A stretch of DNA of 63,909 nucleotides, filler included, from Folioceros fuciformis (Eukaryota), in NCBI GenBank assembly GCA_049999805.1. It is 5 parts of 3 records of this genome, joined end to end, with 100 filler letters (N's around TTAATTAATTAA, not from the genome) between each part and the next. Parts side by side here need not be neighbours in the genome. Positions count along the whole stretch, not along the records: positions 29,083 to 43,134 come from JBNGIO010006373.1; 4 more parts are not named here. One strand, given 5' to 3'. The position numbers and the translations under genes are program-made. Shown here piece after piece: positions 24,297-43,996 of this stretch. The number at the start of each line of letters is the position of its first letter. The stretch's first letter is position 1. The notes below the pieces were generated by a model, which saw nothing but the letters and a program-made list of their open reading frames with translations, did not search any database and had not been told where the DNA came from.

Positions 24297-25564
24297 GGTT
24301 AACGTGTCCTGCTTGACTAGGTTAGGGTGTTAGTGTTTCGTTTAGAGGTTTGCAGAAGAACTCATTCTAGTNNNNNNNNNNNNNNNNNNNNNNNNNNNNN
24401 NNNNNNNNNNNNNNNNNNNNNNNNNNNNNNNNNNNNNNNNNNNNNNNNNNNNNNNNNNNNNNNNNNNNNNNTTCTAGTAGTGAACTCATAACAGGTTACC
24501 TGTTACCTCGAGAATGGACATGACTGAAGGTGATATTTCAACTTTAGGTTCAAATGTGAATGCTTTGCCCAATCAATTCACTTACGGCATGTGATGGCTG
24601 AAGCTTGTGTGACTGCTTGTCAATCGCAGTACAGCTCAAAATCCAAGGAGTTATTTATCGTGAACGGAGAATCACGTGGGACACATGAGTTAATAGACTT
24701 TTTTACATAAGCTATCCCTTCCACATCCTCACACTTCTGAACACTTTTCACTACCAAAATCCCTTAATGATATTTCTGTTCTGAACATTGTTTTATAAAT
24801 TATACGAGTCACACAACACGCGTAACTGTGGACGACGATACACTAAAATAACACTCCTCCTTCATAGGCTGGTAATTCACAAATAAGTACTAATTATATA
24901 TGTAAAATAGACCACGTGAAACGTGTGAGGATCCCGACCACACAATTGATTGGAGAAAAGATGATGACCAAGAACGTTCTAGTCAAGACCTAAGCAGAAA
25001 ATTGGATCATGTCACGAACTATTCCATCGTGACAATGACTCTATTTTCAATGTAAAATCTCTTTTCTTTCCTCACCCGTGCTTCTTGGAAAGCGAGAATC
25101 TGTTGCGATGGATTCAAGTTTCTGTCTCTAGTACACCTAATACAAGTTCCAGTTTGCAATGCCAGATTCGTGTCTCCACATCGCGATCACGTTGCTCCAC
25201 GGTGAGCATGTTCGACTAGGTCCTGTCTCCTCCACTTCCTGGTCGCGACCAAAATTGCAAGAAAAAAATCAGAAAGCCCTGCCATGACCATGGTTTGCGG
25301 CTTAGGCCTAGCCTCCATTACGTCGGAAGTCAGGCGTTGGTGTTTAACTCTTCCAGCAGTCCAGATTCCGGGAGCAAATCGGCTTCAACGCGCAATTGCG
25401 CAACCCCTCTACGTAGGGGCGTTTTCGACCTTACGAGTATCATGTACTGTAACGACCAGAACTGTTGTCGTTACTGGGCAGCAACCCATCGAAATCAGCT
25501 TACGCCATCCTCGCGAAGGCACATCGGATACTGCGGTTTGTGGACAGATTTCCTGAGGAGCCAG

Positions 25565-28340: not shown

Positions 28341-29326
28341 AACAGAATGAACCCAAGATGATGGCAAGCCTGCGCAAAGCAGCACTAAATGTTCACAACG
28401 TTGAATTCCAAATCATACCCCTCATTAGAGGCCCTAAAAGCCAACTACAGGATTCGTTTCGAACGTACTGCTAGGGACTTGTGGCTTGTCGCTAAGCTTG
28501 CGAACACTCAAACGAGGAGCGCTCTCTCAAAGCGCTAACTGCCTCGTTGAATCGGCTGTCAGGCACCCCCGGCAAAGCACTCCGTCGTCACTCGGCTACC
28601 ACGCTGGAATCCTCGTCATCCTAGCACCCCGGGATGACTTGAAAGTAAACATCCACCTGAACACAGGGGGCACTGCGCACCTGTGACAGACTCCTTCCAC
28701 CAATACTGTCGATCTATTTTCCAGTCGCGACGGTGGGGTGTGAACCTGAAGCGCTTCACAGTCTACCATGCGGGATGTAAGAAACTGGAGACCAGACGAG
28801 CAGGAGGAGTGTATGCGTCCATGGTAAAAAGCTGGCACCATTGAGGAAAAGCGGGAGTGAACAATCGGCGGAAAGGACTGAAGCAACAATCTGCACCCCT
28901 GCCAAAAGTTAAGAGGACCACAAGAACTGTTTGTAAGCGCTCTGAAAGAGCCGTTGAGGCTGATCCGCTCTCGCTACCACACNNNNNNNNNNNNNNNNNN
29001 NNNNNNNNNNNNNNNNNNNNNNNNNNTTAATTAATTAANNNNNNNNNNNNNNNNNNNNNNNNNNNNNNNNNNNNNNNNNNNNATTTTTGATTAAATGAAT
29101 ATGCAGATTAAATCAACATGTTGATCAATTACATCTGAAATGTATATTAAAGAATATTAATTAATAATTTCTAAAAGTGAGTTTTTTAAAATAAACTCAA
29201 AAGACACGTCTAATAGGCGTAACCCTAACCAAGCGTTGTGACCTTATTAATCTCACTTAAGCTAACCAAACGTGCCCTAAATATAATCAGCATATGTATG
29301 CGAATACTCTTTAACATGTGAATCCA

Positions 29327-29963
29327 GCCTTAGTCTTCCCCCTCAACACAACGGGTTCTGAAACCATGGAGATCTTTACTTCCTTTAGTCTTCCCCCTCA
29401 CCACAACGGGTTCTGAAACCACGTATGATCTTAAGCATAGTCCTGGCTTCCATCAACTATGATCTTCACAGTCCGGCTTCCACTCACTAGAAGTCATCAA
29501 CTATGATCTCCATAGCTTCCACTCACTACAGGTGATAACTATGATCTACGTGGCTTTTACTCGCTACACCGCTTTTGGAATTCTGGCTCACAATTAAGCA
29601 TGCTCGGCCACACAGCTTGCAGCTTTTACTCGCTACACCGCTTTTGGAATTCTGTCTCACAATGAAGCATGCTCGGCTACACAGCCTACAGCGTGTTGTG
29701 CAAAAGTTCTCGGCTTCTTTCGTGGCGAACACTTCCAGGGCTTACTTAACGATTGGCCAGCAATCTTCCTAAGTAAATATTTGTCCCAAAACGCCTTTAT
29801 CCTCTTGGTCGAGTTGTCTGCCCCAATTTACCTCTTGCTTAGAGTACTTCCCTCTGAATGCTACTGTCCAGTTCAAGTCCTCTATAAAGTCGAGTTGTCT
29901 GCCTCAATTTACCTCTTGCTTAGAGCACTTCTCTCTGAATGTTATTGTCCAGTTCAAGTCCTC
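29327..29963. repeat. Cluster of short direct duplications (LTR/TE-like)
   Basis: TAGTCTTCCCC(C)TCA.CACAACGGGTTCTGAAACCA x2, GCTTTTACTCGCTACACCGCTTTTGGAATTCTG x2, and an ~81-bp GTCGAGTTGTCTGCC...CAAGTCCTCT x2. Confidence 0.75.
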
Positions 29964-30136
29964 TTTACAGAACGAACCTAAGGCAAGATGCTGCAAGTTT
30001 TCAAACCCTAAGATATGTTCATGGGTGCATAAGAATGGTTAGCAAGAAACACTGCAAGTGTATCGGACCTATTGCTCCATGAAATTGAGAAGTGCACTTC
30101 CTAAAGCCGTGCACTCATTGTAGAAACTGTGCACTT

Positions 30137-30318
30137 GAGATCGAGGGTTGCTGAAGACCCTTGAACTTGAGATTGGGGTTGTTGAAGACCCTTGAACCAG
30201 AGATCGAGGTTGCTGAAGACCCTTGAACTTGAGATGGGGGTTGCTGAAGACCCTTGAAATGGAGATCGGGGTTGCTGAAGACTCTTCAAGTGGAAAGGGG
30301 GTTGCTAAAGACCCTTGA
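30137..30318. repeat. ~30-bp minisatellite, ~6 copies
   Basis: GAGATCGGGGTTGCTGAAGACCCTTGAA(CTT) unit repeated. Confidence 0.85.
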
Positions 30319-31419
30319 GAACCATAACACTCATAAGGAGGACCTACTGCAAGCGCATGGAACAAAAGATACGCTTACGTTTACCATCTACCAAAAGCCG
30401 AAGACTAAAAGCCCGTTCATGCTTTATAGCCCGAGAATGCACTTCGCCTCAAGTGCAGCTCAGAAAATACGAAAGTATTCAAACTGAAGTACATATAGAT
30501 TTGTATACCACATACGTATTTCACAGGGATGTAGAGGACGAGTTTGGTGACAACCGGGCCAACAAACGACGATGGATTAAAAACTAACCGATGGAGTGGA
30601 GCCGGTGACAGGGCACGTAACGACGAATCCCGCACGCCTCTCGAGAAGAGGTAGTAAATTTCAGGGGAGGCTTAGGCGCTGGCGCAGCCGTGGGGGCATC
30701 TCGAGACGGCCGCTCTCCGTTCACCCGGTGCTATGAACGTACATAGAGTCACAGAACGCAGTTACGCTGGACCGGACCCACCCCGCCCGATTCTAATTCG
30801 CTGCAGGACCGGGAGTCTCCCATGCACCCCGGCGTGCGCCTCAGTCTCCTCAGCCATAAATGCTTGGCGCGTGTCATGTAAACTCGTGTCATGTTTCTGT
30901 CGCTCAGCCTGCCCGTCGGATCTTGACCCTAAACCCGGGAACCCCCTGAGCCCTAAGTCGCGTGACTTAAGCCCTAGACCCACAGCCCAGCGAGCGCATG
31001 CAGGCGCAGGGTTCGAAGTTTTCAAACCGGAGGAGCCGGGACGGGACGGAGAGGAGAGGAAGGAGGCGGGGGTGGAGGAGGAGCAAGGACGAGGAAGGAC
31101 AGCAGGCAGGCGGGAGGCACGCCGGACGGGTGGGCAATGAATGCACAGCTTGTCGTACTGTAAACCCCTGAGCGGGTCGGTTACATAGGAAACGGCCTTT
31201 CTCGGAATTACTATGTGCGTCGGCTTTACCCCAACACCAGCTGGTGGCAGTGGAGGCGACGGACGATGGATCGTGCGAGAGGAGTCGGATGACTTCGATC
31301 GCCTCCCTCCCTCGAGTGCGAGTCCCCGTCTAGTTGCCAGTGCGGCAGTGTCGAGTGGGACACCATTTGCAGCAGCATCAGCAGCAGCAGAAACAGAAGA
31401 GAGCTGGGAGGCGGCGCCC

Positions 31420-34161
31420 ATGGCGTGCACGTTCTCGCATTCGGGGCTGGATGGATCCGGGACGGGCCCGGAGCGCGTGTGGAATCTCTTGGCGCACCCG
31501 GCCTTGCCGATGCAGATGGTCGGGCACATAATGAAGCACGCGTTCCAGAGCGCGGCTCCGCGGACCAGCGCGCTGCTCTCGCTCAATGCTGTGCCAGGTT
31601 CGGGGTCGGGCTCGCAGCAGGGCAAGCCCCTGCTGCAGTCGCTGGCTGGCGCGCTGCAGGGCAAGAAGAAGAACAAGAAGTCGTGGCTGGCGCAGCTGCA
31701 ATCCGGGACCGCCATCTACCCTTGCATCTGCATCTCGGCGGGCCAGCATTCCGACACCAGCGCCGCGTACCTGCTCTGGCCGACCTCTGGTCGAGTCAAC
31801 CATGGCAGCCCTGAGGAGCGCGCTTCGTACTTCCACGGCCTCCAGAAGGATGTACTCAGCGAGCAGGATGCTGCTTCCTTCCCCCGCCCCCGGGGCCACC
31901 AGGCCACTACGCTGCTCGAGCTCATGACGGTGCGCGCCTTTCACAGCAAGGCCCTCCGCCGCCACAGCCTTGGGACCGCGCTGGGATTCAGGATTCGCGG
32001 CGGAGTCCTCACCTCCACCCCCGCCATCGTGGTTTTTGTAGCCAGGAAGGTTCATATGCAGTGGTTGCTCGACGTCCAGCGCTTGCCCAGCATTCTGGAG
32101 GTGAGGGGACTTTCTAATCATTTCCTTGCCTGGCTGTGGGACTCATTTTCTTTGGCTTTGCCTTGCTTCACTTTGCTCCCTGCCTCTTTTCATCTCTGGC
32201 TTGTACCTTTGCTGTGGTTCGTGCTCCAGCAGGGGCCCGGAGGCGTATGGTGTGATGTGGATGTGCTTGAATTTTCGCACTACACGGCTCCTACCTCAGC
32301 TCCCAGGGAGCCTATTCATGGCGAGCTGGTGGAAGGTCTGAGGGGGAACGATCCTTACATTGGACCCGGTTCGCAGGTGCACATTTTACCCGCCAGGTTG
32401 CGTCTATGTAACCGGGACTCACTCCTCCTCCTCATCCTGTTCCCTTGCCTGTTTCAATGCATTATCCCTTTCCATAACCTTAACAGGCTGCCTTGACCCG
32501 GAAAAACTCTTATGTCTCATTCTCCCTCGCCTTCACACTTTCCTCACCTGCCCCCTTTTCCCAATCAAGTCCCGGCTCATGCTGGGGCTCGTTCTCTGCA
32601 TTTCTTTCAAAAGTTAGTGCTGTTCACCGTTTGGAGCGTCTTGGTTACACGAGCGAATTCCTACCGGTCTTTCTGTTGTTTTTTCTGAGGCTGTTTTTAA
32701 AACTCGCTTCAGGTTGCGAGCCAGGAGACGTACGGAACGCTAGGGGCCGTAGTCAGGAGCCAGACGGGGCTGAAGCAGTTGGGGTTTTTGACGAACCGCC
32801 ACGTGGCCGTGGACCTTGACTATCCTAACCAAAAAATGTTCCATCCGCTACCTCCCAAGCTTGGGCCTGGTGTGTTTCTAGGTGCGGTGGAGCGGGCCAC
32901 GTCATTTGTCACGGATGACTTGTGGTATGGCATATTTGCAGGGATGAATCCAGGTCTATCACACCACCACTACCCTCCATGGTTCCCATGTTTCTCTCGG
33001 CATGGCGCATCGGCATTTCCTGACTTTCTTGTGGGCACCCGAAGGTTGTGCGTGGGAAACTACCTAATCGATGCACATGCCGTCGTCTGTGTTTGGAACA
33101 GAGTCGTTTGTACGAGCTGATGGGGCCTTCATTCCTTTTGCTGAAGCTTTGGATCTGGGTAATGTGACAACAACTATCAAGGGGGTTGGGGAAATGGGCG
33201 AGGTCATGGATGTTGACCTTCAGGGCTCTATTGATAGTGTGGTAGGCAAGCCAGTGTTGAAGGTGGGACGGAGCTCGGGTTTGACGAGGGGCGTTATCAT
33301 GGCTTATGCAGTGGAATACAACGACGAGAATGGGATATGCTTTTTCACTGACTTTTTGATCGTCGGCGAGAACAAGCAAAGTTTTGATTTGGAAGGGGAT
33401 AGTGGAAGCCTCATACTCGCAGTACCTACAGAGCCATCTCGGAAACCTAGACCCATCGGTATCATATGGGGGGGCACTGCAAACAGGGGCAGATTGAAGC
33501 TGCGCTATGGGCACGGGCCGGAGAACTGGACGAGTGGAGTTGATTTAGGCCGGCTGTTGAATCTTCTTCAACTTGACCTCGTAACCAGTGGTACTGGTAC
33601 ACTGTTGCCCATGTGTTTGTCGCTTCTTCACACTATAACAGTAATCCTTCTACTGACAGTTACCAATCTGTGTATGCGTGTGCTTAGATGCGGACCTGGA
33701 AGTAGAGGTGGTCCCCCAGTCTCAGGAGTACCTAGGTCAGTCCCAAGTACCAGGCAGATAGTTGTAATATGGCCAGTCTCCATACTCTCCATTATGGCAA
33801 GTTGTTAATACATGTGCCCTGGGAAACAGGCAAGAAACAACCCAAGTCTGTGGTGGACCATTCCCTACGACCTGATACTTCCGCCAGGTCATTTCTCACC
33901 TACCCTAGCAGAGAGGGTGAAACACAGGCCGATTCATCCGAATTTACTCCTCGAGGTGCTGAGGGACGGCGGGTCTCCCGCGAGTGGGAAGCGGAGTATC
34001 GTGCTCCGGAGGGTATGGGAATATCTCTGTCTGGCATTTCTCATGGCGAACCTGACTCAGGGTCCAGGCACGATTTCAGGAAGAATGTACAGGAGGATGC
34101 ATCATTAGGCTTGGGCCTATTTGATGGACGTGAAGCCAAGCGAAGACGCTCCAGCACTTGA
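31420..34161 (+). CDS. NAL1: NARROW LEAF 1-like trypsin-family serine protease, multi-exon (an upstream in-frame ATG at 31213 is possible)
   Basis: QATTLLELMTVRAFHSK, SLGTALGFRIR, GPGGVWCDVDV, GFLTNRHVAVDLDYPNQKMFHPLPP, FVRADGAFIPF, FDLEGDSGSL, IIWGGTANRGRLKL. H/D/S triad intact. Confidence 0.93.
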
Positions 34162-35189
34162 TGTGACTTATTGTTTCCTTTTGGTTATCTGCAGAGTTGG
34201 AGCTCCTTGCTCTAGACTAGCGGTCAGGTTCAATCCACTGGTGTAGGCATCATGAAGGTGTCCCAAGGTATGGCGGTTGTGAGATAGAGGCCAACATTGC
34301 TCCGAGAGACCTGTTCCATCTCACATTAGCACTCCAAGCAGGGGAGTTGGTCCGAGCTGAGGAGTTGCTGCCTTGTAAGTTTGTAGTACTCCGGTTGTAA
34401 GAATATGGCCTTCTTAAGTGCGATACTCTGTGACCTGGTTGTATGATTCTTTTCCTTGTGCACTGTATAGTTGCCCATTTGCAATGCGTCGCCTGCGGCT
34501 GGTTGCTGTTTTCTAAGATTTCCCCCTTGTTGGGTGACAGGGAAGGCAGTTGTCTAAATTTGTTGCCGCATGTTCGCAACTTCTGGTGTCACATTTGTCA
34601 TGTCGTAGTTTACGATTACATAGTGAGGAGAGCAGACATGAGTATGGACGTGTCTAAGCATAATGAGCTTCAGAACCAGCTCAGCTCATCTGCAAGCTTG
34701 CAACTTCTCGCCCCAGAATGGCAAGCCTTGTAATACTATTTCGCTCTCTTGCTCCTTGATACCAATTTTTTGTCATCAACTGCCAGACTTTGCTCTTCCC
34801 TCGACACGTTTGCCGCTGCAGGGATGATTCCCATACCTCCCTCCCTCTGGAGTCTAGTATGCGTCTTTCTATTGTTCTTTTCATCAGTTCAATCGCTGCT
34901 GAAGGTGAAAGGGAAAGAATTCCCGTCATATCTCCGTTGCTTCGAGGTTCTCGTTATTCCTGTCCTGTGCAACATGTCCAGTTGATTTAGAACGTGAAAA
35001 GTGAAGGAAATTCTTAGATGATTTCTGTGTGAGGAGACACGGTTTCAGGTGAAGCAGGCACTACTATCTGCAGCCGACGACCTTTTACCAGGGACCCCAG
35101 TTTGATTGGGAATGCTCTTACATGTATGAGGTTGACTGTGCTCGGTCGTGTCCATGTTCCAGTGGATACGAGGTACAAGGAACCGGAAC

Positions 35190-35960
35190 CTAACCTACAC
35201 TGGTTGCAGATCCTCTGCAGTGGATGGTCTTTACCTGGATGGAGTTGGTAAGAGACAGAGCCCTGGCTGCGTACAAAGAATCAGCCTCAGCCGACAACGC
35301 CTTCCATGCTGCATCCACATGCCCTTGATGGGTGAGAGGAGATTCCGCAGCCTTTCGAAGCCACCTACCTGTGCACGGCAGATCCAGAAGGGGGCCTACG
35401 TCACATTCTAGCCCAGCAGGATCCAACGTACACCTCTAGGAGCATGGAGAAACATCGTGTGTCAAAAAAGGCGTGTCCCGTCATGTTGATTTGCTTCCAC
35501 AAGTCTGTAGTTGTGACCATAGCCGTTATCGGTGTCTCCAGAGTGGTTCGAGGCCGGAAGCACACGAGTCCCAGCGACCTAGGGTATGTCGTGATCCTGT
35601 GTGTCATACCACTAACCTCAGGCTGAAACCGATGGATTCTACGTACTAGATTTTCGAAGTGTTCCGCAAGCTTGACGTTGCCGATTCCTGATGTAGCCTC
35701 GTAGATTGGAGATACCATGCATGCGCAGTCGTAGCACCATCCACAGCTTCACAGCCCTGTACTCACCACACTCAGACAGGTGCCATTCGCATGTTGTGGC
35801 ATGGCCTGAAGCGACGACCAACTTCAAGGGGGATTTGCGAGTCTTTGCAGTGCATCACCAAACTCTCTTCCGAAGCCTGGTGATGTCGGAAACACAGAAG
35901 GCCCACATGTTGGAGCTAGAAGGGACTCCAGAAGAAGCAAATTCTTGAGCATTCAGAAGC
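35190..35960 (-). pseudogene. Aromatic L-amino acid (tyrosine/tryptophan) decarboxylase pseudogene, C-terminal half
   Basis: Frameshifted pieces RAVKLWMVLR..GISNLRGYIRN, VKLAEHFENLV, PRSLGLVCFR and SPLTHQGHVDAAWKAL match group II PLP decarboxylase C-terminal motifs in order. Confidence 0.75.
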
Positions 35961-36989
35961 AGAAAGCCTGTCCGGGTTGCTTCCGACATCGCACGCAGTC
36001 TACAAATCTGAGATTCCTAGCCTGCCTAGTGAGCACAAAATCTCCGACTGCCAGCGGCGGTGTGACAGTTTTTCATGTCCGCTACTACCTACGTCCTCTG
36101 ACTGGAAGCCTCGTGCTCGTGGCACGTGGTGCTGAAGCACGAAGCTGCGTGATGGCCATGGCCTTGGGGCCCGGAGGTGATTTCGGGTCAGTCTTCCAGC
36201 TGCACGTCGTACACCACTGCTGCTCACTGCACGTCGTACCACCACTGGTGCCACCAGAAGTCGTACACCCCCAGTGCTTGCTTCCTTAAGTTACCTCGTA
36301 ATACTATACGCTGTATGCTGCTCGTTCCACTTCAAGAATCTTTAAGCGTGTGTTGACACTGACCAGCATCTTGTGAAATCCGAACTGGACTGCACGTCCA
36401 GATGATCCCTGGGAGCACACTTGAGTCGGTTCCAAGTGTCAGTCATACAGGGAGAATTCGGATACACCCAATCTCGTTTCTTCGGAGCTCTTCCTACTGT
36501 GCTGGAAGTGTCGTTGGCCATGTCAATTACACGTGCAATGTGTGCATACCATATGGAATATCCATCTCGTCATCGTCATCGTCATCGTCATCGTCGCCGT
36601 CGCCGTCGCCGGTGTTCCCTCTTCGATGTCCCTTCCGCAGGCTCCGGCATCTGCTGCGGAGGAAGCAAAACAACCGACTACGTACAGCAATGCTAGGGCT
36701 CCCAGATCCCAAAGAAAACGCCAACAACAAAGACGGGCGCTAATTTGGTGAGAAGAGGCTGTTCCTGTTACTGGCCCCCAATTGTTGTCTGATCGACGGG
36801 CGAATTCCAAATCAGAAGTGTCATTTCGGAGGTGACCATCGATCATAACTAATTTGATGATGAAATACGATTCTCCTGTCCCCGAGTGATGATGATGAGA
36901 TAGATCTGTGAGTACAGGACCTGCAGGGCCTGAAGATCTGTCAAATTTCTCGGATGCTCTACGGTGACAACTGTTGCAGGCTTGCAGGA

Positions 36990-37330
36990 ACCCATTCACT
37001 TCGTCTGATTACTTGTAGACTAGATACAAGCATGCGAGCCTCCAGTAGGATGGAAGTTTTTCAAACCACCCCAGCTCCAGCTGTTGTGAGAATTTTGACA
37101 GTATCCGGCTCAATCTCAGCTGTGCGCCAAGAGGTAACCACAACACAGTCTTCACGGACGAAGACTCTACCCTCATCACGTTGAAGTCGAAGTGCTCAAT
37201 TGCCCTGAACTACTCATCCAGCTCCTTGGTAGCCGAGTCCAGCCTTTCTGGTAACTCTTCCATTGACGTCCACCACCGGCATTCTTCAAGAGAAGCAGTT
37301 GCTGAAGACCTTAGCCGCTCCTCCCTCAAC
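36990..37330 (-). pseudogene. Possible degenerate leucine-rich-repeat gene fragment
   Basis: Manual translation gives SLEECRWWTSMEELPERL and QQLELGWFEKLPS with stops. Weak LRR resemblance only. Confidence 0.2.
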
Positions 37331-38107
37331 TGCACAGGATCCAAGCACAAAGGACCATCAGCAATAATCCGAAACAGACATTAGGACCAGTATCCCGCTT
37401 ATCCCCAGTCCCTCACGGTAACGTTTTCAAGGAACAGGTAACCTGGGCCAAAATGACACACAACAACACCACGTACATAAGATGCCCTCTCAAAGCTTTT
37501 TAGGAGCCTGCACCGGATCCCGCCGGTATATGCCAACATTCTGACGGCACAGACGTCATAAATGAACAAAGGACCGTTGTGACGTGTGCGTTCTGACAAA
37601 AATGGAGGTACAGTACGCAGTAGGTACTGCGACTGCTCTCTTTCATGTCTACCTCCTCTTGCCACCCTTCTTCTTGGATTCTTTCTTTGCCTTGTCATTT
37701 CTTTCAAGGTCTTTCCGTGCCAGTTCTTGGATCTTTTTCAGTTGAAGATCCTTCTCGCACCATACAAGATTCCAAATCAATGGAGTACTTCAATAAGAAT
37801 TGAGTGAAATGTCACAGCAGTGAGTTTAAGATGGCAATCAGCTATGCTTATCCCTCTTGCCTACGGTGCACTAAACCTAAAACTGACCACCATCTGAGCA
37901 AAGGGACACAAGTACGAGTCAAACGAGATACAAAGATGTAGTAACCTTAAGCATGCTTTTCACTATCTTCTTTTCAATGGCTGCGAGCAAATTACATCAA
38001 ATTTTGCTTCATGATAGACGCTTCCTAGTGCACACATCAAGACTGGGTCAGAAGACTCATCATCCTGCCCTAGGTGCACAGGACCTCTGCCAGCAACGTG
38101 ACGATAG

Positions 38108-38661
38108 TTAAACAGCAAGGGGAATCCTGCACCGTCCTGGGTGGCAGGTTTTAACAAACGATTTGCAAGAACGATCAGCAAGGACAGTGGAGCAAAACGT
38201 CTGCATCAACCACGGAATGGTAAAACATCCAAGAGAAACAACAGTGGGACTAACCTGTGCTGTATCGATAGGCTCGTGTGTGTCTTCAGGAACCCATACT
38301 CCAGTTACCGGATCTGGTTTCCACCACTTCTGCTTACTGGGCGTAGGCGACTCTTTGACCCTATCATGATTGGCCCTCTTCCCCGTCTCCAGTATGTCCT
38401 CCCTCTGCGCATCTATAGCAGTCTTGTCGGATCCCTCTCTGGAGCTACTACTCATCCCTCGATTACCACTGCAGAGCGAAGTGATGGGGTTAAAACCTAG
38501 CCGCAGCATTACGCTTCTCCTGTACGCTGCGAACCACATCGGTAAATCGGATGCTGCGTTTGCGTTGCTTACCAATTCCATAATTCGGTGCCGCTCTCAC
38601 TCAATGCCCTGGACGTGCGCAAGAGCATGGCAGCAACGGGAGCGCCATTCACGCCCAGCAT
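38108..38661 (-). CDS. LEA_3 family (LEA5/SAG21-like) protein; exon 1 38661-38573, exon 2 38468-38255, 3' end uncertain
   Basis: W-motif WWKPDPVTGVWVPED. Exon 1 MLGVNGAPVAAMLLRTSRALS resembles an organellar presequence and splices in phase (TG|T). Confidence 0.75.
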
Positions 38662-39340
38662 CTGCCATGGCTGACATGCAACGACCCGTCGAAGCGCAGC
38701 CATGGTTGGTATCAGATCTATCACGATTACCAGCCTGCCTCCCCCCTACTTTAAAGGTAGGTCAGGCTTCTATGTCGGAATGAATTGCTGCGCACACGGA
38801 TGGACGCCTCCTGACAAAGCTATCGTTCGACGGGTATGCGTCTCGTTTAGGGTTTCCTCGCTGGCGAAGGTGGAGCAATTCGCCAAGGCCAGATCGAATC
38901 CGATCGGGTTGACGCCAAGCAAGCTGTAGAAAGTCGTGGAGACTTTTATCAACGCGATTAACGGGTTCAGCTGTTTCCAGAGTTCCGACTCCTTTTCGAT
39001 GAGAAACCACGGCTATACCTAAACAGAGAAGAAGTCTCATTGGATTGAAGACGCGAAAGAAAGGCATCGGATACCCAAGACTTGTGCTAAAATTGATGGC
39101 TCTGTGCTAGTCCATGTGCTCTTGTTCGACTGTTTCGTCCGGAGAATATCGATCTTCTGAGGGAGCAGCATAAGGCTTTGATTCACTTCTTCTTGGTCAG
39201 AATTTTTAGAGATGGTGGCAGGTGAGACTCGGATTTGCTGTAATCTCATCGTTTGTTTGAGGGTACGGCACTCGGAGCTCCTGCCCGCTGTTAGGGTTAT
39301 CTAATGATTGAGGAAAACAGGGCAATGCAGTGGAGATGTC

Positions 39341-41647
39341 ATGGCTGCCACCACCAGTGCATGCGGCTCTTCTTGCGGATGGCATCCCCTGCAGTTCCAG
39401 AATGTGTTCGTTCACCCTAAGCTCTTCTGGGGTGAATGGAGGTGGCTTAAGACAGGGGCCAATGGAGGGACTCGTCTTGTTTCTTGTGCATCCATCTCTT
39501 CCAATCAAGAAATTACGATGCAGAGAGAGCGGCAGGAGCTGTTGTGGCGCCACTTCTTCTCCACTCCCTCCGATTGGTGGGACAACAGGGCGGACAAGAA
39601 AAGCGCCCGGCATCCCGACTTCAGGCACAAAACCTCATGGGAGCCTCTATGGCTCGACAATTATCACAAGCCCGCCTGGGTAGATACGCAGCTAGCCAGG
39701 TGGGACTCGCAGCTGGGCGAAGGGCATGGGGGAGGGCAAGTGGTAGGAGACTCGGGAGTCCAAGGTCTGTGGCCGAGCGGCTCTCACCAGCCGGCCTGGA
39801 AAGATGTTGGAGGAGAAGATCCAGTGCTCCAGATCTTGAGGAGACGGTGCGAGGAGGCAGAGCTGGGTGAGGCCGTAGAAGCGTTGGATCTCTTGGTGCA
39901 ATGTGGGTGTCACATCAGCCGCACTCTGTTTTATCGTCTCCTCAAAAGGTGCATGGCACAGAAGGATCTTGCTTGTGGCAGGCGAGTTCATTCTCTTGTT
40001 GTCGAATGGGGCTTGGGGTCCAGTGCATTTTTGGCAACTCACATCATTGGGATGTATGCCTGCTATGGCGAATTGCAGGATGCAGTGCAGGCTTTTCGAG
40101 ACGTGGCTATGCCGGACATATACATGTGGTCCTCCATCATCTCAGCGCATACCAGGCACGGGCAGCCCAGCAAGGCCATCAGCTTCTACCGAGAGATGCG
40201 GGAAGCAGGGACAGGCGTCGAGGCGGATAATCACATATTCGTGGCAGCTTTATCGGCGTGTGCCGCTGCAGAGGACCTGGTTGCTGGCAAGGAGGTGCAT
40301 GCCCACATTCAGGCTAGTGCTGTCAAGGCCGACATTTTCGTTGGCAACAGCCTTGTCAATATGTATGCTAAATGTGGCAGCTTGGATGACGCTCGCAAAG
40401 TCTTTGACGGCCTGCCCAGGAGAGATGTCGTCACATGGAATGCCATGATCGCAGGGTACTCTCAGCAGGGGCTCGGGCGGGAAGCCCTGGCTCTTTACGA
40501 AAGTATGCAACGTGATGGCATCACTGTGGCTGATAACGTCACATTTGTGTCGCTTCTTCAGGCATGTGCGACTGTGGGAGCGCTGCAGCAGGGAATGCAG
40601 CTTCACACAGAGATACGGGCTAGAGGTCTGGACACTGATGGCATGATTGGTAATAGCCTGGTGAGCATGTATGCCAGATGTGGGATGTTAGACACTGCTC
40701 GCAACGTCTTTGATGCTTTGCCCAGGAGAGATGTGGTGACATGGAATTCTCTCCTCAACGGACATGCTGAACACAGCGACGGTCCCATGGCCATCCAGTT
40801 GTTCGAAGACATGCTGCAGCAAGGGGTTGAACCAAATGCGACGACTTTTACATGTCTAATGGTGGCATGCAGTCATGCTGGCCTCGTGAATGAGGGGCAT
40901 CAGTACTTCAGGATGATGGTGGAGGAATACGCAATTGTGCCTTCTGACTATCACCACAGTTGCATGGTTGATCTTCTTAGCCGCTCTGGCCAGCTGCATG
41001 AGGCGGAACGTTTACTGCGAAGCACATCATGTGTGAATGATGTGGTGGCCTGGACATGTTTGCTGAGTGCCTGCAAAGGTTACGGTGATCTAGCTTGCGG
41101 GCAAAGGTGCTTCGACCATCTTGTAAAATTGGCACCTGAAGACGCAAGTGCGTATGTGCTGCTGGGGAACCTTTATGCCAATGCCGGCAGATGGAACGAT
41201 GTGGAAAGAATCGAAAAACTGAGAAGGTCTGGAGGTGCTATGAAGAAAGCTGCAAAGGCTTGGATCGAAGTGGAGAGGAGGGTGCACGAGTTCACTGTTG
41301 GAGAAGACAGGTCCGACATCTCCTCAAAGCTGCGCAGCGTGAACAGGAGGTTGAAGGAGGAAGGGGGCCATATTCCACAGACAGTCCTGGTGTTGAAGGC
41401 AGTGCCTGAACAGGAGAAGGAGGATGCCTTGTGTGGGCATGCAGAGAAACTGGCCTTGGCTTATGGTTTGTTGAACACACCTGACGGCACAGCTTTGCTA
41501 GTCACCAAGAACCTCCGCATGTGCAATGATTGTCACAGCAGCACAAAGATAATGTCACGCCTCGAGAAGCGAGAGATCATTGTGAGAGACGCACACCGAG
41601 TTCATCAATTCGTGGATGGGTCATGTTCGTGCAGGGATCGGCTTTGA
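39341..41647 (+). CDS. PLS-class PPR protein with E1/E2 and DYW:KP-type deaminase-like domain, plus N-terminal OSB 'PDF' motif; intronless
   Basis: About 11 P/L/S repeats (DVVTWNAMIAGY, NSLVNMYAKCGSL), KKAAKAWIEV instead of the PG box, HAEKLA, KNLRMCNDCH, HRVHQFVDGSCSCRDRL. N-terminal WWDNR..K..RHPDFRHK..EPLWL. Confidence 0.95.
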   Translation: MAATTSACGSSCGWHPLQFQNVFVHPKLFWGEWRWLKTGANGGTRLVSCASISSNQEITMQRERQELLWRHFFSTPSDWWDNRADKKSARHPDFRHKTSWEPLWLDNYHKPAWVDTQLARWDSQLGEGHGGGQVVGDSGVQGLWPSGSHQPAWKDVGGEDPVLQILRRRCEEAELGEAVEALDLLVQCGCHISRTLFYRLLKRCMAQKDLACGRRVHSLVVEWGLGSSAFLATHIIGMYACYGELQDAVQAFRDVAMPDIYMWSSIISAHTRHGQPSKAISFYREMREAGTGVEADNHIFVAALSACAAAEDLVAGKEVHAHIQASAVKADIFVGNSLVNMYAKCGSLDDARKVFDGLPRRDVVTWNAMIAGYSQQGLGREALALYESMQRDGITVADNVTFVSLLQACATVGALQQGMQLHTEIRARGLDTDGMIGNSLVSMYARCGMLDTARNVFDALPRRDVVTWNSLLNGHAEHSDGPMAIQLFEDMLQQGVEPNATTFTCLMVACSHAGLVNEGHQYFRMMVEEYAIVPSDYHHSCMVDLLSRSGQLHEAERLLRSTSCVNDVVAWTCLLSACKGYGDLACGQRCFDHLVKLAPEDASAYVLLGNLYANAGRWNDVERIEKLRRSGGAMKKAAKAWIEVERRVHEFTVGEDRSDISSKLRSVNRRLKEEGGHIPQTVLVLKAVPEQEKEDALCGHAEKLALAYGLLNTPDGTALLVTKNLRMCNDCHSSTKIMSRLEKREIIVRDAHRVHQFVDGSCSCRDRL

Positions 41648-43996
41648 CCCTGCGGTAGGGTATGTCACATAGGGACAGCAATCGTCTAGGGCCTTGCAGT
41701 AGTGTGCCGGGAAGGGAAGAGCCCATTCGCGTCGGGGAATCATCATGTGGTGAGTCGCGATGGGCGCAGTAATCCCTCCACATTTCCCGGCCAAGGTCTA
41801 TCCATGTTCACCTTGCACAAGGTCCATGGTTCCTCCAAGATGTTTGCAGGAACAACGTACATATGCATCGCGTACAGCACTGTCATGTACGCATCCCTTG
41901 TGCTGATGACGTTGCTAGGGTCATGAGAGGAGCATGAAGTGAGGTATGAAAAGCCGTCTTTGAAGGGAGTGGCGTCCACATCCATGTAGTACAGCTGGAC
42001 TGCTCAGTCCAGCTGGTGTCTCTCTTTTTCACCCGTTTGAGTATGATGGGCACTTGTGCAGGCAGGCAGGGTTTTTTGACAAGTCTGCTCTTCCGCCTCA
42101 TGGCCTGTGAAGTTGTCTGCCATGGCTGACAGGAACCTGCAATATGTTCCACCTACGGTGGTGTCCGCCCTGTATGTACGTGCGTGGAAGTTGGAATGAC
42201 TGATCTTCAGATGGTGAGACATTCCACAAGCAAACAACTACACACACGCAGCGTTGTCGTGTCAGGACAGTGTACTCTCACCGGTGCCCATTTGTGTCCA
42301 CTCCCACTTTCCTGCCCCTTTTCCTTCCCTTTCCAGCTTCCGGAACTGTCACTCACCTGTGAGGCTGTGGATTCTTCTCCACCCAATTGCATACACAGTT
42401 CTCTTCTCTCCCCTGCTCCAAGTCGGCAGTGTGCACACAAAACATCGCCGTCCCATGTCCACATGTTGACTTTGACTTGCATGAACATGAATGTCTTGTA
42501 TGTGTGTCTCTATGTAAGCCTACCTTTTTTAATAAGAGCTTTTTAATGGGATCGAAGAGACAAGATCCACAATTCCAGACAGCTGCAAACATCTGTAGTT
42601 TTGAATGTGGTGTTCGAAGTGGATCAAGAAGCCGCTCCATACTGTACGTGAAGCGTGTCAGTAATTAATTAACATCATATGTATTTCGCTCACGGAGCCT
42701 CCGCCCGCCCCACTCCTGGCCTTGGCGCAACGCTACGTGATGTCAGAGCGTGATAATGGAGGAAGCGGGTCTGGCCGCCCGGCGCCGGCCAAGCAAAGGC
42801 AGCCGGCAACCCAAGGGCACGCACACATTGCATACCTCCCGGCCGTGCCGTGCCGTGCCGTGCCGTTTTCCACAGTCTTGGGGACAGCTGCAGCTCTGGC
42901 TCCACCTTCCTGGCTACCTTGCTCCCCAGTTCCGGCTCGCCCACGCCATCCCCGCGCGCTTACTTGCCAGGCAGCGCTCTGTTGCCCGGAGCGTGGCTTC
43001 CGAGTTCCGCCGAGGCGCCAGATGCAGCTTGCCTCGGCCTGCACCTGATTAAACTAGTGTATGTGTGTCTCGCAAATCTCCCTTTTCGTTGCTCCTTTCC
43101 CCGCCTATCCTCTCCCTCTCCTGCTCCCTCCCCCNNNNNNNNNNNNNNNNNNNNNNNNNNNNNNNNNNNNNNNNNNNNTTAATTAATTAANNNNNNNNNN
43201 NNNNNNNNNNNNNNNNNNNNNNNNNNNNNNNNNNACCACAAGATCGCCTTGCTCAACAACATTTCTTCACTCATCTTCTTAAAAAAAAACATTAATCACC
43301 CTTACACCAAACATCAAATTTAAGACTTTAAAACAAACGTGGCATGTAGGTATTCCTGCAAGAATATTCACAACGGAATGCTGGCTGCCCAAGACAAATT
43401 ACTGGTAAGCATAGTAGTTTCTCAAGCTCACTTGCATTTATTTATGAATTAAAAAGAACTTTTTTTTATTTTTATTTTTAAAGAGAATGACGAATTAAAG
43501 TTCTATTGTTCGCAGAATCCCTTGGATTCATTCGTTATCATAGTGACAGCCCTTAAGTTGCTTAACATTGGATTATTACTTAATCCCCTTTTCCCAATTT
43601 TTTATGCTCAGGAAGAAAGTTAGATACTAGTTACCTTTGAGTGGATTATGATTCACTTTCAACCCAAAAAGTTGATAGAATTTGAGCGTGAAGATTAAAA
43701 TGAGGACATGTTTATCCAAATGATTATTTTTTATTATTGAAAAAGAGATGGAAAGTCCCATCTACTCCAAAGGTTAAAGATAGAGGAACAACCAAGCAAG
43801 GCCAAAAGGGTACTAGCCCCTTGAACAAAAAACTTTTTGTAAACTAAAAATATCTAAATATTTATAAAAAAGAGTATTTAAATCTATGTATGTTGTAGTA
43901 ATGAAACACTTAGGGCTGCAAGAATTGATACAAAAGAGTATGTTAGTAAGACTATATTTTGTATGATGCTGGAATGGTCTTAAGAACTCATTCACC

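Follow-up and report, generated by a model that had tools for sequence, protein, structure and literature searches.

What is a motif known for binding single-stranded DNA (ssDNA) doing at the front of an RNA-editing factor? The question is raised by a gene at positions 39341-41647 of the stretch analysed here (the window: 63,909 nucleotides from the Folioceros fuciformis assembly GCA_049999805.1, made of five parts of three records with 100 filler letters between each part and the next), in the part that comes from JBNGIO010006373.1. PPR-DYW editors and the PDF motif of the plant proteins called OSB (Organellar Single-stranded DNA-Binding) are each well known, and it is their combination that goes unmentioned in the texts searched. 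We find that the gene is predicted to encode a PLS-class PPR-E1-E2-DYW organelle RNA-editing factor with one genuine N-terminal PDF domain and that, on sequence evidence, it is one member of a large class of PDF-PPR proteins, with or without a DYW domain, that is widespread in liverworts, mosses, lycophytes and ferns.

The frame is unbroken from the ATG at 39341 to the stop codon at 41645-41647, and Pfam assigns to it PPR (1.9e-50), E_motif (2.8e-13) and DYW_deaminase (1.1e-34) families; tandem PPR repeats are followed by E motifs and then by a DYW deaminase in both the Pfam annotation and the predicted model, the order that marks a PLS-class PPR-E-DYW protein. The sequence-only reading had placed the PDF motif in one uninterrupted open reading frame (ORF) with these domains, and the ORF and the Pfam assignments bear this out. 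The first ~180 residues of the ORF have no match to any Pfam family, even at E<=1. By a six-frame pattern scan the motif occurs once in the window, and none of the 12 runs of N (662 N in total, e.g. 24372-24471 and 43135-43234) falls inside the gene. The protein is laid out as follows.

39341..41647, + strand: main ORF encoding the PDF-PPR-E-DYW protein, 768 amino acids plus stop (ATG 39341, stop 41645-41647).
39341..39532, + strand: N-terminal 64 residues, presequence-like, with 3 acidic, 6 basic and 12 Ser/Thr residues and a predicted local distance difference test (pLDDT) score <50 at residues 1-58.
39533..39694, + strand: PDF motif, residues 65-118, which keeps W, P, W, D, R, K, P-D-F, L-W, P and W-V.
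39695..39820, + strand: linker of ~42 residues from the PDF motif to the first PPR-like helix pair, with pLDDT <50 at residues 126-157 and unalignable among relatives.
39821..41023, + strand: PPR tract, 12 PPR-like helix pairs, residues 161-561, with modelled helices at pLDDT >90 and matches to Pfam PPR families.
41042..41230, + strand: E1/E2 motifs, residues 568-630, two helix pairs in the model; the Pfam E_motif spans residues 581-643 from the ATG, which are 592-654 when numbered from the TTG at 39308.
41237..41644, + strand: DYW deaminase, KP-like, with KKAAKAWIEV at residues 635-644, HAEKLA at 700-705, CNDCH at 728-732 and the C-terminus CRDRL.

The N-terminal 64 residues, for which the alignment of homologues holds no alignable relatives, are a putative organelle transit peptide.

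The PDF motif is a stretch of ~50 amino acids with conserved Pro, Asp and Phe, of which OSB proteins carry one to three copies behind an SSB-like domain (PMC6963530, PMC4166229; statements on these and the other papers cited refer to the portions of their text that were available). Positions 39533-39694 on the + strand translate into the 54 amino acids QELLWRHFFSTPSDWWDNRADKKSARHPDFRHKTSWEPLWLDNYHKPAWVDTQL. A phmmer search with this sequence against 1,835,955,588 representative proteins gave 592 matches with E<=1e-3; 134 of these reached <=1e-10 and 14 reached <=1e-30, and many matches had 2-13 matched stretches each. The named matches include P0035, 'protein OSB1, mitochondrial-like' of Populus nigra (E 4.8e-20), and P0036, 'organellar single-stranded DNA binding protein 3' of Euphorbia peplus (E 1.1e-19); in BLASTP against OSB3 of Euphorbia peplus, 31/51 residues were identical (61%, E 5e-19) in one motif and 23/50 (46%) in the other. 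A Pfam scan covered 148 of the 150 listed among the 592 matches, P0002 and P0005 being left out for their size. The 10 longest proteins scanned were 8 PPR proteins, one protein with an SSB domain (P0023) and one kinesin, and the remaining 138 contained Pfam SSB in 39 cases and PPR in 3, at E<=1e-3. An alignment of 44 sequences is gap-free over the motif, with W12, W22, D24, P35, D36, F37, W47 and P54 invariant; the motif spans 52 profile positions, its P-D-F lies at residues 92-94 of the protein, and every near-invariant column is kept. Together, the significant phmmer matches, the named OSB1 and OSB3 proteins, the SSB-bearing matches and the 61% identity identify this stretch, by its sequence, as a genuine PDF motif of the OSB type, as had been proposed for it.

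Two further searches were uninformative: a word-indexed search with the 54-residue motif gave no candidate sharing three words, which is a limit of the index given the 592 phmmer matches, and the ESM Atlas gave no usable match to residues 55-125. At E<=1, Pfam finds no SSB or other OB-fold family anywhere in the protein. Because an SSB-like domain is lacking, and the motif is preceded by 64 low-confidence residues, we ruled out that the protein is itself a member of the OSB family.

The wider family of motif carriers includes unusual proteins. Among odd angiosperm carriers (P0002, P0051 and P0023), a Kingdonia protein has 13 PDF motifs, a kinesin of Coptis also contains PDF motifs, and SSB occurs together with PDF in a protein of Striga that bears the name 'Interactor of constitutive active ROPs 2'; the fusions could be genuine, or gene models may have been merged. 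A further set from ENA, JGI or Logan (P0004, P0009, P0013, P0005 and similar) has 7-11 variant PDF-like repeats (e.g. W.DFR..K), signal-peptide-like starts and no SSB or PPR, with P0004 weakly matching unrelated Pfam families only. With these proteins the motif family may extend to another branch, outside plants or in algae.

Structure prediction treats the motif as a separate unit. The full-length AlphaFold2 (AF2) model, built on a 31-sequence alignment, has a mean pLDDT of 82.1, with values >90 in the PPR-E-DYW part. This part shows 12 PPR-like helix pairs at residues 161-561, followed by two helix pairs of the E motifs at 568-630 and by a DYW domain of alpha/beta type, whereas scores are <50 at residues 1-58, 80-93 and 126-157. 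Folded alone with 44 sequences, a 70-amino-acid piece containing the motif reached a pLDDT of 91.4 and a predicted TM-score (pTM) of 0.75, with a helix at 2-17, strands at 22-24 and 37-39, a short bridge at 45-46 and a helix at 56-69. Foldseek against 350,542 PDB chains returned 12 matches at E<=10 and none at <=1e-3 (best query TM 0.27), and a sequence search of the PDB with the motif returned catalases only, at a chance level of E ~8-10. Since a confident fold is thus paired with no significant structural or sequence match in the PDB, the PDF domain seems to have a compact fold that is its own and for which no relative has been solved, and a flexible linker of ~40 residues connects it to the solenoid.

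How common is the fusion? We applied a PDF profile built from the phmmer matches to the best 120 full-length homologues of the window protein, and 18 of these carried 1-3 N-terminal PDF motifs: 12/22 rows from Diphasiastrum complanatum, 4/4 from Calypogeia fissa, 1/3 from Ceratodon purpureus and 1/44 without source name, with 0/1 in Funaria, 0/6 in ferns, 0/27 in Ginkgo, 0/10 in Cryptomeria and 0/3 in angiosperms. These counts are lower bounds, as gene models can miss N-termini, and each row is a 90%-identity cluster, so that alleles or isoforms may inflate the lycophyte count. A profile search of proteins of 378-2000 amino acids found 315 PDF-bearing proteins at E<=1e-5. In the best 120 of these 315, PPR proteins exceed all others by 87 to 33, and 36 of the 87 PDF+PPR proteins also have a DYW domain. 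Diphasiastrum supplies 58 of the 87, Sphagnum species 16, Calypogeia 3, Adiantum 1 and sources without name 9, with no seed plant among them; the other 33 are multi-motif proteins, from angiosperms or without source name, 11 of which have OSB or single-stranded-DNA-binding names and 12 of which have Pfam SSB.

Within the 87, the number of PDF motifs is one in 50 proteins, two in 28, three in 8 and four in 1. The start of the first motif ranges over residues 5-189 (median 92), and the end of the last over residues 70-731 (median 176). In each of the 13 PPR-bearing proteins among the phmmer matches listed, every PDF motif likewise lies in the N-terminal part. Examples are Diphasiastrum complanatum KAJ7570437.1, Sphagnum compactum CAM6033764.1, Adiantum capillus-veneris KAI5076972.1 and entries of Calypogeia fissa; the fern members are from Adiantum and Ceratopteris, with one Pteridium transcriptome ORF (P0094). 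PDF-bearing PPR proteins in the best 120 of 315 are 512-1386 amino acids long (median 850), and the proposal that the PDF motif offsets a short PPR tract was rejected as unsupported, since it is not borne out by these lengths.

These counts also rule out PDF-PPR-DYW as a singular architecture. The sequence-only reading knew of no characterisation of the architecture, and this part stands, in that our literature search found no paper describing the PDF motif with PPR proteins, older primary papers and supplements lying outside its scope; its singularity does not, given 18 of the 120 closest homologues and the 87 PPR proteins in the best 120 of 315. The companion statement, that canonical PLS-DYW factors have no such module, applies only to the seed-plant rows compared (0/40: Ginkgo 27, Cryptomeria 10, angiosperms 3). 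Term searches of the available text gave 0 mentions of PPR in PMC13393729 (2026, on OSB/PDF evolution), 0 of OSB or PDF in PMC13386178 (2026, on domain fusions of editing factors) and 0 of OSB, PDF or ssDNA in PMC11897456 (a 2024 PPR review); the 2022 overview of Physcomitrium PPR proteins names RRM, LAGLIDADG, SMR, NYN, CBS and SAP as add-on domains in the text available (PMC9459714). Within the texts searched, the PDF-PPR class has apparently gone unremarked.

We then compared the motifs with one another in a FastTree of 398 PDF motifs, 41 of them PPR-linked, over 52 alignment columns, with members of the named-match clusters left out. The PPR label changes 10 times on this tree, whereas 300 shuffles of the labels gave 39.6 changes on average (minimum 35); relatives share labels, and the result therefore means clustering, not a dated single origin. 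Thirty PPR-linked motifs fall in one clade of 42 and 8 in another of 11, both with low supports (38 and 59), and the non-PPR members of these two clades are mostly short proteins, possibly N-terminal fragments. At several positions the consensus of the PPR-linked motifs, E.LW..FFSDPSQWWDNR..K..P..PDFKHK.T.E.LW.....NP.WV, is not that of the OSB type. Judged by these motif sequences, the PPR-linked PDF domains are a subfamily apart from the OSB type.

The window motif groups with those of P0171, P0003, P0115 and P0093 and is 60% identical to that of P0171, with flanks that cannot be aligned. In a related organism (organism C), 6/181 bases differ in the motif stretch, compared with 39/607 and 87/891 in PPR-coding stretches. 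The intact near-invariant residues, the identity to P0171 and the low divergence in organism C are evidence that the PDF motif is under constraint, as far as sequence comparison can indicate it.

The DYW domain belongs to a distinctive class. KP-subclass domains have Lys-Pro in place of Pro-Gly, Ala or Cys in place of Ser after the zinc-binding His, and variable C-terminal residues, and they are limited to early-branching clades with U-to-C editing (PMC11845758). The window protein has the zinc-binding signature HxE(x)nCxxC (HAE at 700-702, CNDCH at 728-732), and its HAEKLA and its end CRDRL (triplet DRL) provide the Ala after His and the variable terminus of the KP subclass; the eponymous pair lies in KKAAKAWIEV. 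Its 11 closest DYW relatives read KKPA.A.IEV (one KKPG) and have non-DYW ends, with HAEKLA in 10/11 (HVEKLA in P0163), and the farther DYW matches have PG, HSE and DYW. The DYW:KP assignment that had been made for this domain is therefore upheld as KP-like by HAEKLA, the DRL end and the KP-type closest relatives, and the domain is, by these residues, of a KP-like class with Ala replacing Pro. Given this class, the base conversion is probably U-to-C.

Among the 11 close KP relatives, only P0171 gave a PDF match (950 amino acids, a Logan contig product with 52% identity to the window protein in the list of homologues and 55% in the alignment). A second close KP-type relative, P0184 (56% identity), has a decayed copy at alignment columns ~241-290, in which DPSQWW.NR is kept and P-D-F is lost; this remnant suggests loss of the motif within the KP clade. 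In the 36 PDF+PPR+DYW proteins from the best 120 of 315, all of the DYW domains that could be matched by pattern (33/36) were of the PG type, with ends DYW, DFW or EYW. The pairing of PDF with a KP-type DYW domain is thus the rarer combination among the protein sequences compared, P0171 being the only other case.

To see whether the gene is expressed as one unit, we compared contigs of four runs over 29100-43100. Run X1 resembles DNA and is possibly the source, X2 has the same organism label, and X4 and X7 have two other organism labels. The RNA status of X2, X4 and X7 is a guess; we treated them as RNA-like because they contain GT..AG joints that are missing from X1 (32950>33099 in a neighbouring gene in X2, X4 and X7; 33589>33687, 33733>33828 and 34374>34541 in X2) and because of the depth profile of X2 (0.5-1.3 over 29100-30967, versus 15-46 in X1). 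Record 12 of X2 covers 38573-39218 and 39318-39982, which takes in the start codon, the whole PDF motif and the beginning of the first PPR; records 13 and 14 of X2 cover 40075-41435 and 41431-42541, and no listed piece covers 39983-40074. Record 17 of X4, from a related organism, covers 39311-40458 unbroken with 95 differences in 1148. Among the contigs listed for the four runs, none begins and none is spliced between the PDF motif and the repeats. The gene is transcribed, as recorded in the RNA-like contigs, and a single transcript for motif and repeats is supported by the X2 and X4 contigs as far as the beginning of the repeat tract. Within the PPR region, joints such as 39630 to 40073 and 40467 to 40727 were rejected as introns, having sides of 21-30 letters and non-canonical ends and being partly present in the DNA run; we read them as cross-matches of paralogous PPR repeats.

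The same X2 contig bears on the 5' end of the gene. It joins 39218 to 39318, and with a 3-base shift the skipped part becomes GT..AG; record 7 of the DNA run X1 is continuous over 37718-41435, the 99-nucleotide stretch included. This adds two features.

39212..39221, + strand: putative first coding exon (ATG 39212, MVA and the first base of a Gly codon), preceded by an in-frame stop at 39179.
39222..39320, + strand: intron of 99 nucleotides, GT..AG, just upstream of the main ORF and skipped in record 12 of the RNA-like run X2.

The spliced frame from ATG 39212 is open for 778 amino acids and adds MVAGQCSGDV before MAATT; this in-frame ATG in the upstream exon may be the true start, with the PDF motif unaffected. 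The contig also reaches upstream to 38573, which implies that the 5' leader is long or that a neighbouring transcript overlaps. Summed contig depth is 534-1313 at 40308-40774 and 66-280 at 41242-41708, compared with 10-40 nearby, in all four runs, and loose ends are numerous there; many paralogues in genome and transcriptome share these PPR- and DYW-coding stretches. The neighbouring gene at ~32700-34950 has at least four small GT..AG introns (148, 97, 94 and 166 nucleotides) in RNA-like contigs, under up to three organism labels.

What, then, could the PDF domain do in an editing factor? The sequence-only reading had suggested, among candidate roles, a nucleoid tether, the melting of structured RNA or action on ssDNA substrates. 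The N-terminus of a PPR tract faces the 5' end of the RNA, and the site of DYW action lies immediately 3' of the footprint. Because of this polarity, a compact alpha-beta-beta-alpha module held by a flexible linker of ~40 residues at the N-terminal end of the solenoid would be placed over the RNA upstream (on the 5' side) of the recognition site. There it would bind single-stranded nucleic acid regardless of sequence, adding affinity or capturing unstructured transcript, with the PPR tract giving specificity and the DYW domain performing the base conversion. We consider it quite possible, if short of probable, that this sequence-independent binding is the role of the PDF domain.

Several observations weigh against this proposal. 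The PPR-linked motifs are a separate subfamily by sequence, and their ligand may differ or may be no nucleic acid at all. The motif region scores a pLDDT of only 38-67 in the full-length model, which leaves its placement relative to the solenoid unfixed. The moss editor PPR56 edits in E. coli without its N-terminus (PMC10482289), an assay which says only that an N-terminal part, with or without a PDF motif, can be dispensable there. On the catalytic side, the activity of natural KP proteins remains unknown according to the text available of PMC11845758, and the eponymous pair reads K-A in the window protein, with Pro replaced by Ala, although it is not PG. Finally, OSB1 and OSB2 favour ssDNA over double-stranded DNA (dsDNA) or RNA, which points to a DNA rather than an RNA ligand (PMC4166229).

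This last preference is also the starting point of the strongest alternative, in which the PDF domain keeps an OSB-like liking for ssDNA and tethers the editor to organelle nucleoids, where editing would take place on nascent RNA beside its template. The tether sites could be displaced strands of transcription bubbles or R-loops, or intermediates of replication or recombination. The PDF motif of OSB1 alone suffices for ssDNA binding (PMC6963530), and the window motif keeps all near-invariant OSB-type positions besides its 61% identity to the OSB3 motif. However, the PPR-linked motifs cluster apart (10 changes versus the shuffled mean of 39.6) and have a consensus of their own (FFSDPSQWW, NPxWV), so that the ligand preference may have shifted, and we regard a nucleoid tether as possible but unlikely.

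A second alternative makes the PDF domain a protein-protein contact or regulatory module, which would serve to self-associate, to dock a partner or to control the DYW domain. Docking would suit a small domain that is rich in Trp and held by a flexible linker, the copy number of 1 to 4 across PPR proteins would fit such a use, and WW domains occur among the weak fold matches (E about 5-10, not significant). Those WW matches are, however, at chance level (probability <=0.04, query TM <=0.25), and ssDNA binding is the sole function on record for the motif in the text available of PMC6963530 and PMC4166229; we think this alternative improbable. That the motif is an inherited relic without present function in this protein, as the decayed copy in P0184 and the lack of a PDF match in 10/11 close KP relatives might indicate by showing that it can be lost, is very hard to credit when no near-invariant position has been lost here, related species differ no more in the motif stretch than in the PPR-coding stretches, the architecture recurs in 87 of the best 120 of 315 proteins from four plant lineages, and missing N-termini in short Logan contigs may account for some of the absences.

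The binding of single-stranded nucleic acid upstream of the footprint, which we prefer, also has a bolder form. The PDF domain may be an ancestral, built-in helper of PLS-class editors in seed-free plants, with a switch from ssDNA to single-stranded RNA in the PPR-linked subfamily, and may raise the affinity or on-rate of weak PLS tracts in cis. We hold this to be a long shot. If true, its function would resemble that of the MORF/RIP and ORRM helpers, which act in trans in seed plants; the frequency of the fusion in liverworts, Sphagnum, lycophytes and ferns, and its absence from the seed-plant rows compared, would be accounted for; and through the window gene the helper would reach into the KP-type (U-to-C) branch.

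Should the domain bind RNA or nucleoid DNA, it would be a missing component in target-finding models of the 'stand-alone' editing factors of early land plants, and designer PPR editors, those for U-to-C among them, would gain a candidate accessory module. It also suggests that heterologous assays in which everything upstream of the first PPR is cut away may discard a functional part.

Set beside known systems, the window protein shares with OSB proteins the ~50-amino-acid PDF motif, including its invariant W, D, P-D-F, W and P positions; it differs in having no SSB match and in its order, with an N-terminal PDF followed by PPR-E-DYW, and PPR-linked motifs cluster apart from those of OSB proteins. 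With the PPR-DYW:KP proteins, which are candidate U-to-C factors of hornworts, lycophytes and ferns and include the designer proteins KP2, KP3 and KP6, it has in common HAE, a non-DYW end (DRL) and KKPA.A.IEV relatives, whereas its own pair is K-A, not K-P, and an N-terminal PDF is unmentioned in the available text of KP papers (e.g. PMC11845758). An N-terminal RRM gives maize PPR4 and PpPPR_3 a comparable arrangement, a small separate nucleic-acid-binding domain before the PPR tract (PMC9459714), a likeness by analogy only, as the RRM is unrelated to PDF and maize PPR4 belongs to the P class and works in splicing, unlike a PLS-DYW editor. Further counterparts are the other PDF-PPR proteins, which have the same order of presequence, 1-4 PDF motifs and PPR tract, often with E and DYW domains; their pattern-matched DYW domains are of the PG type (33/36), whereas that of the window protein is KP-like.

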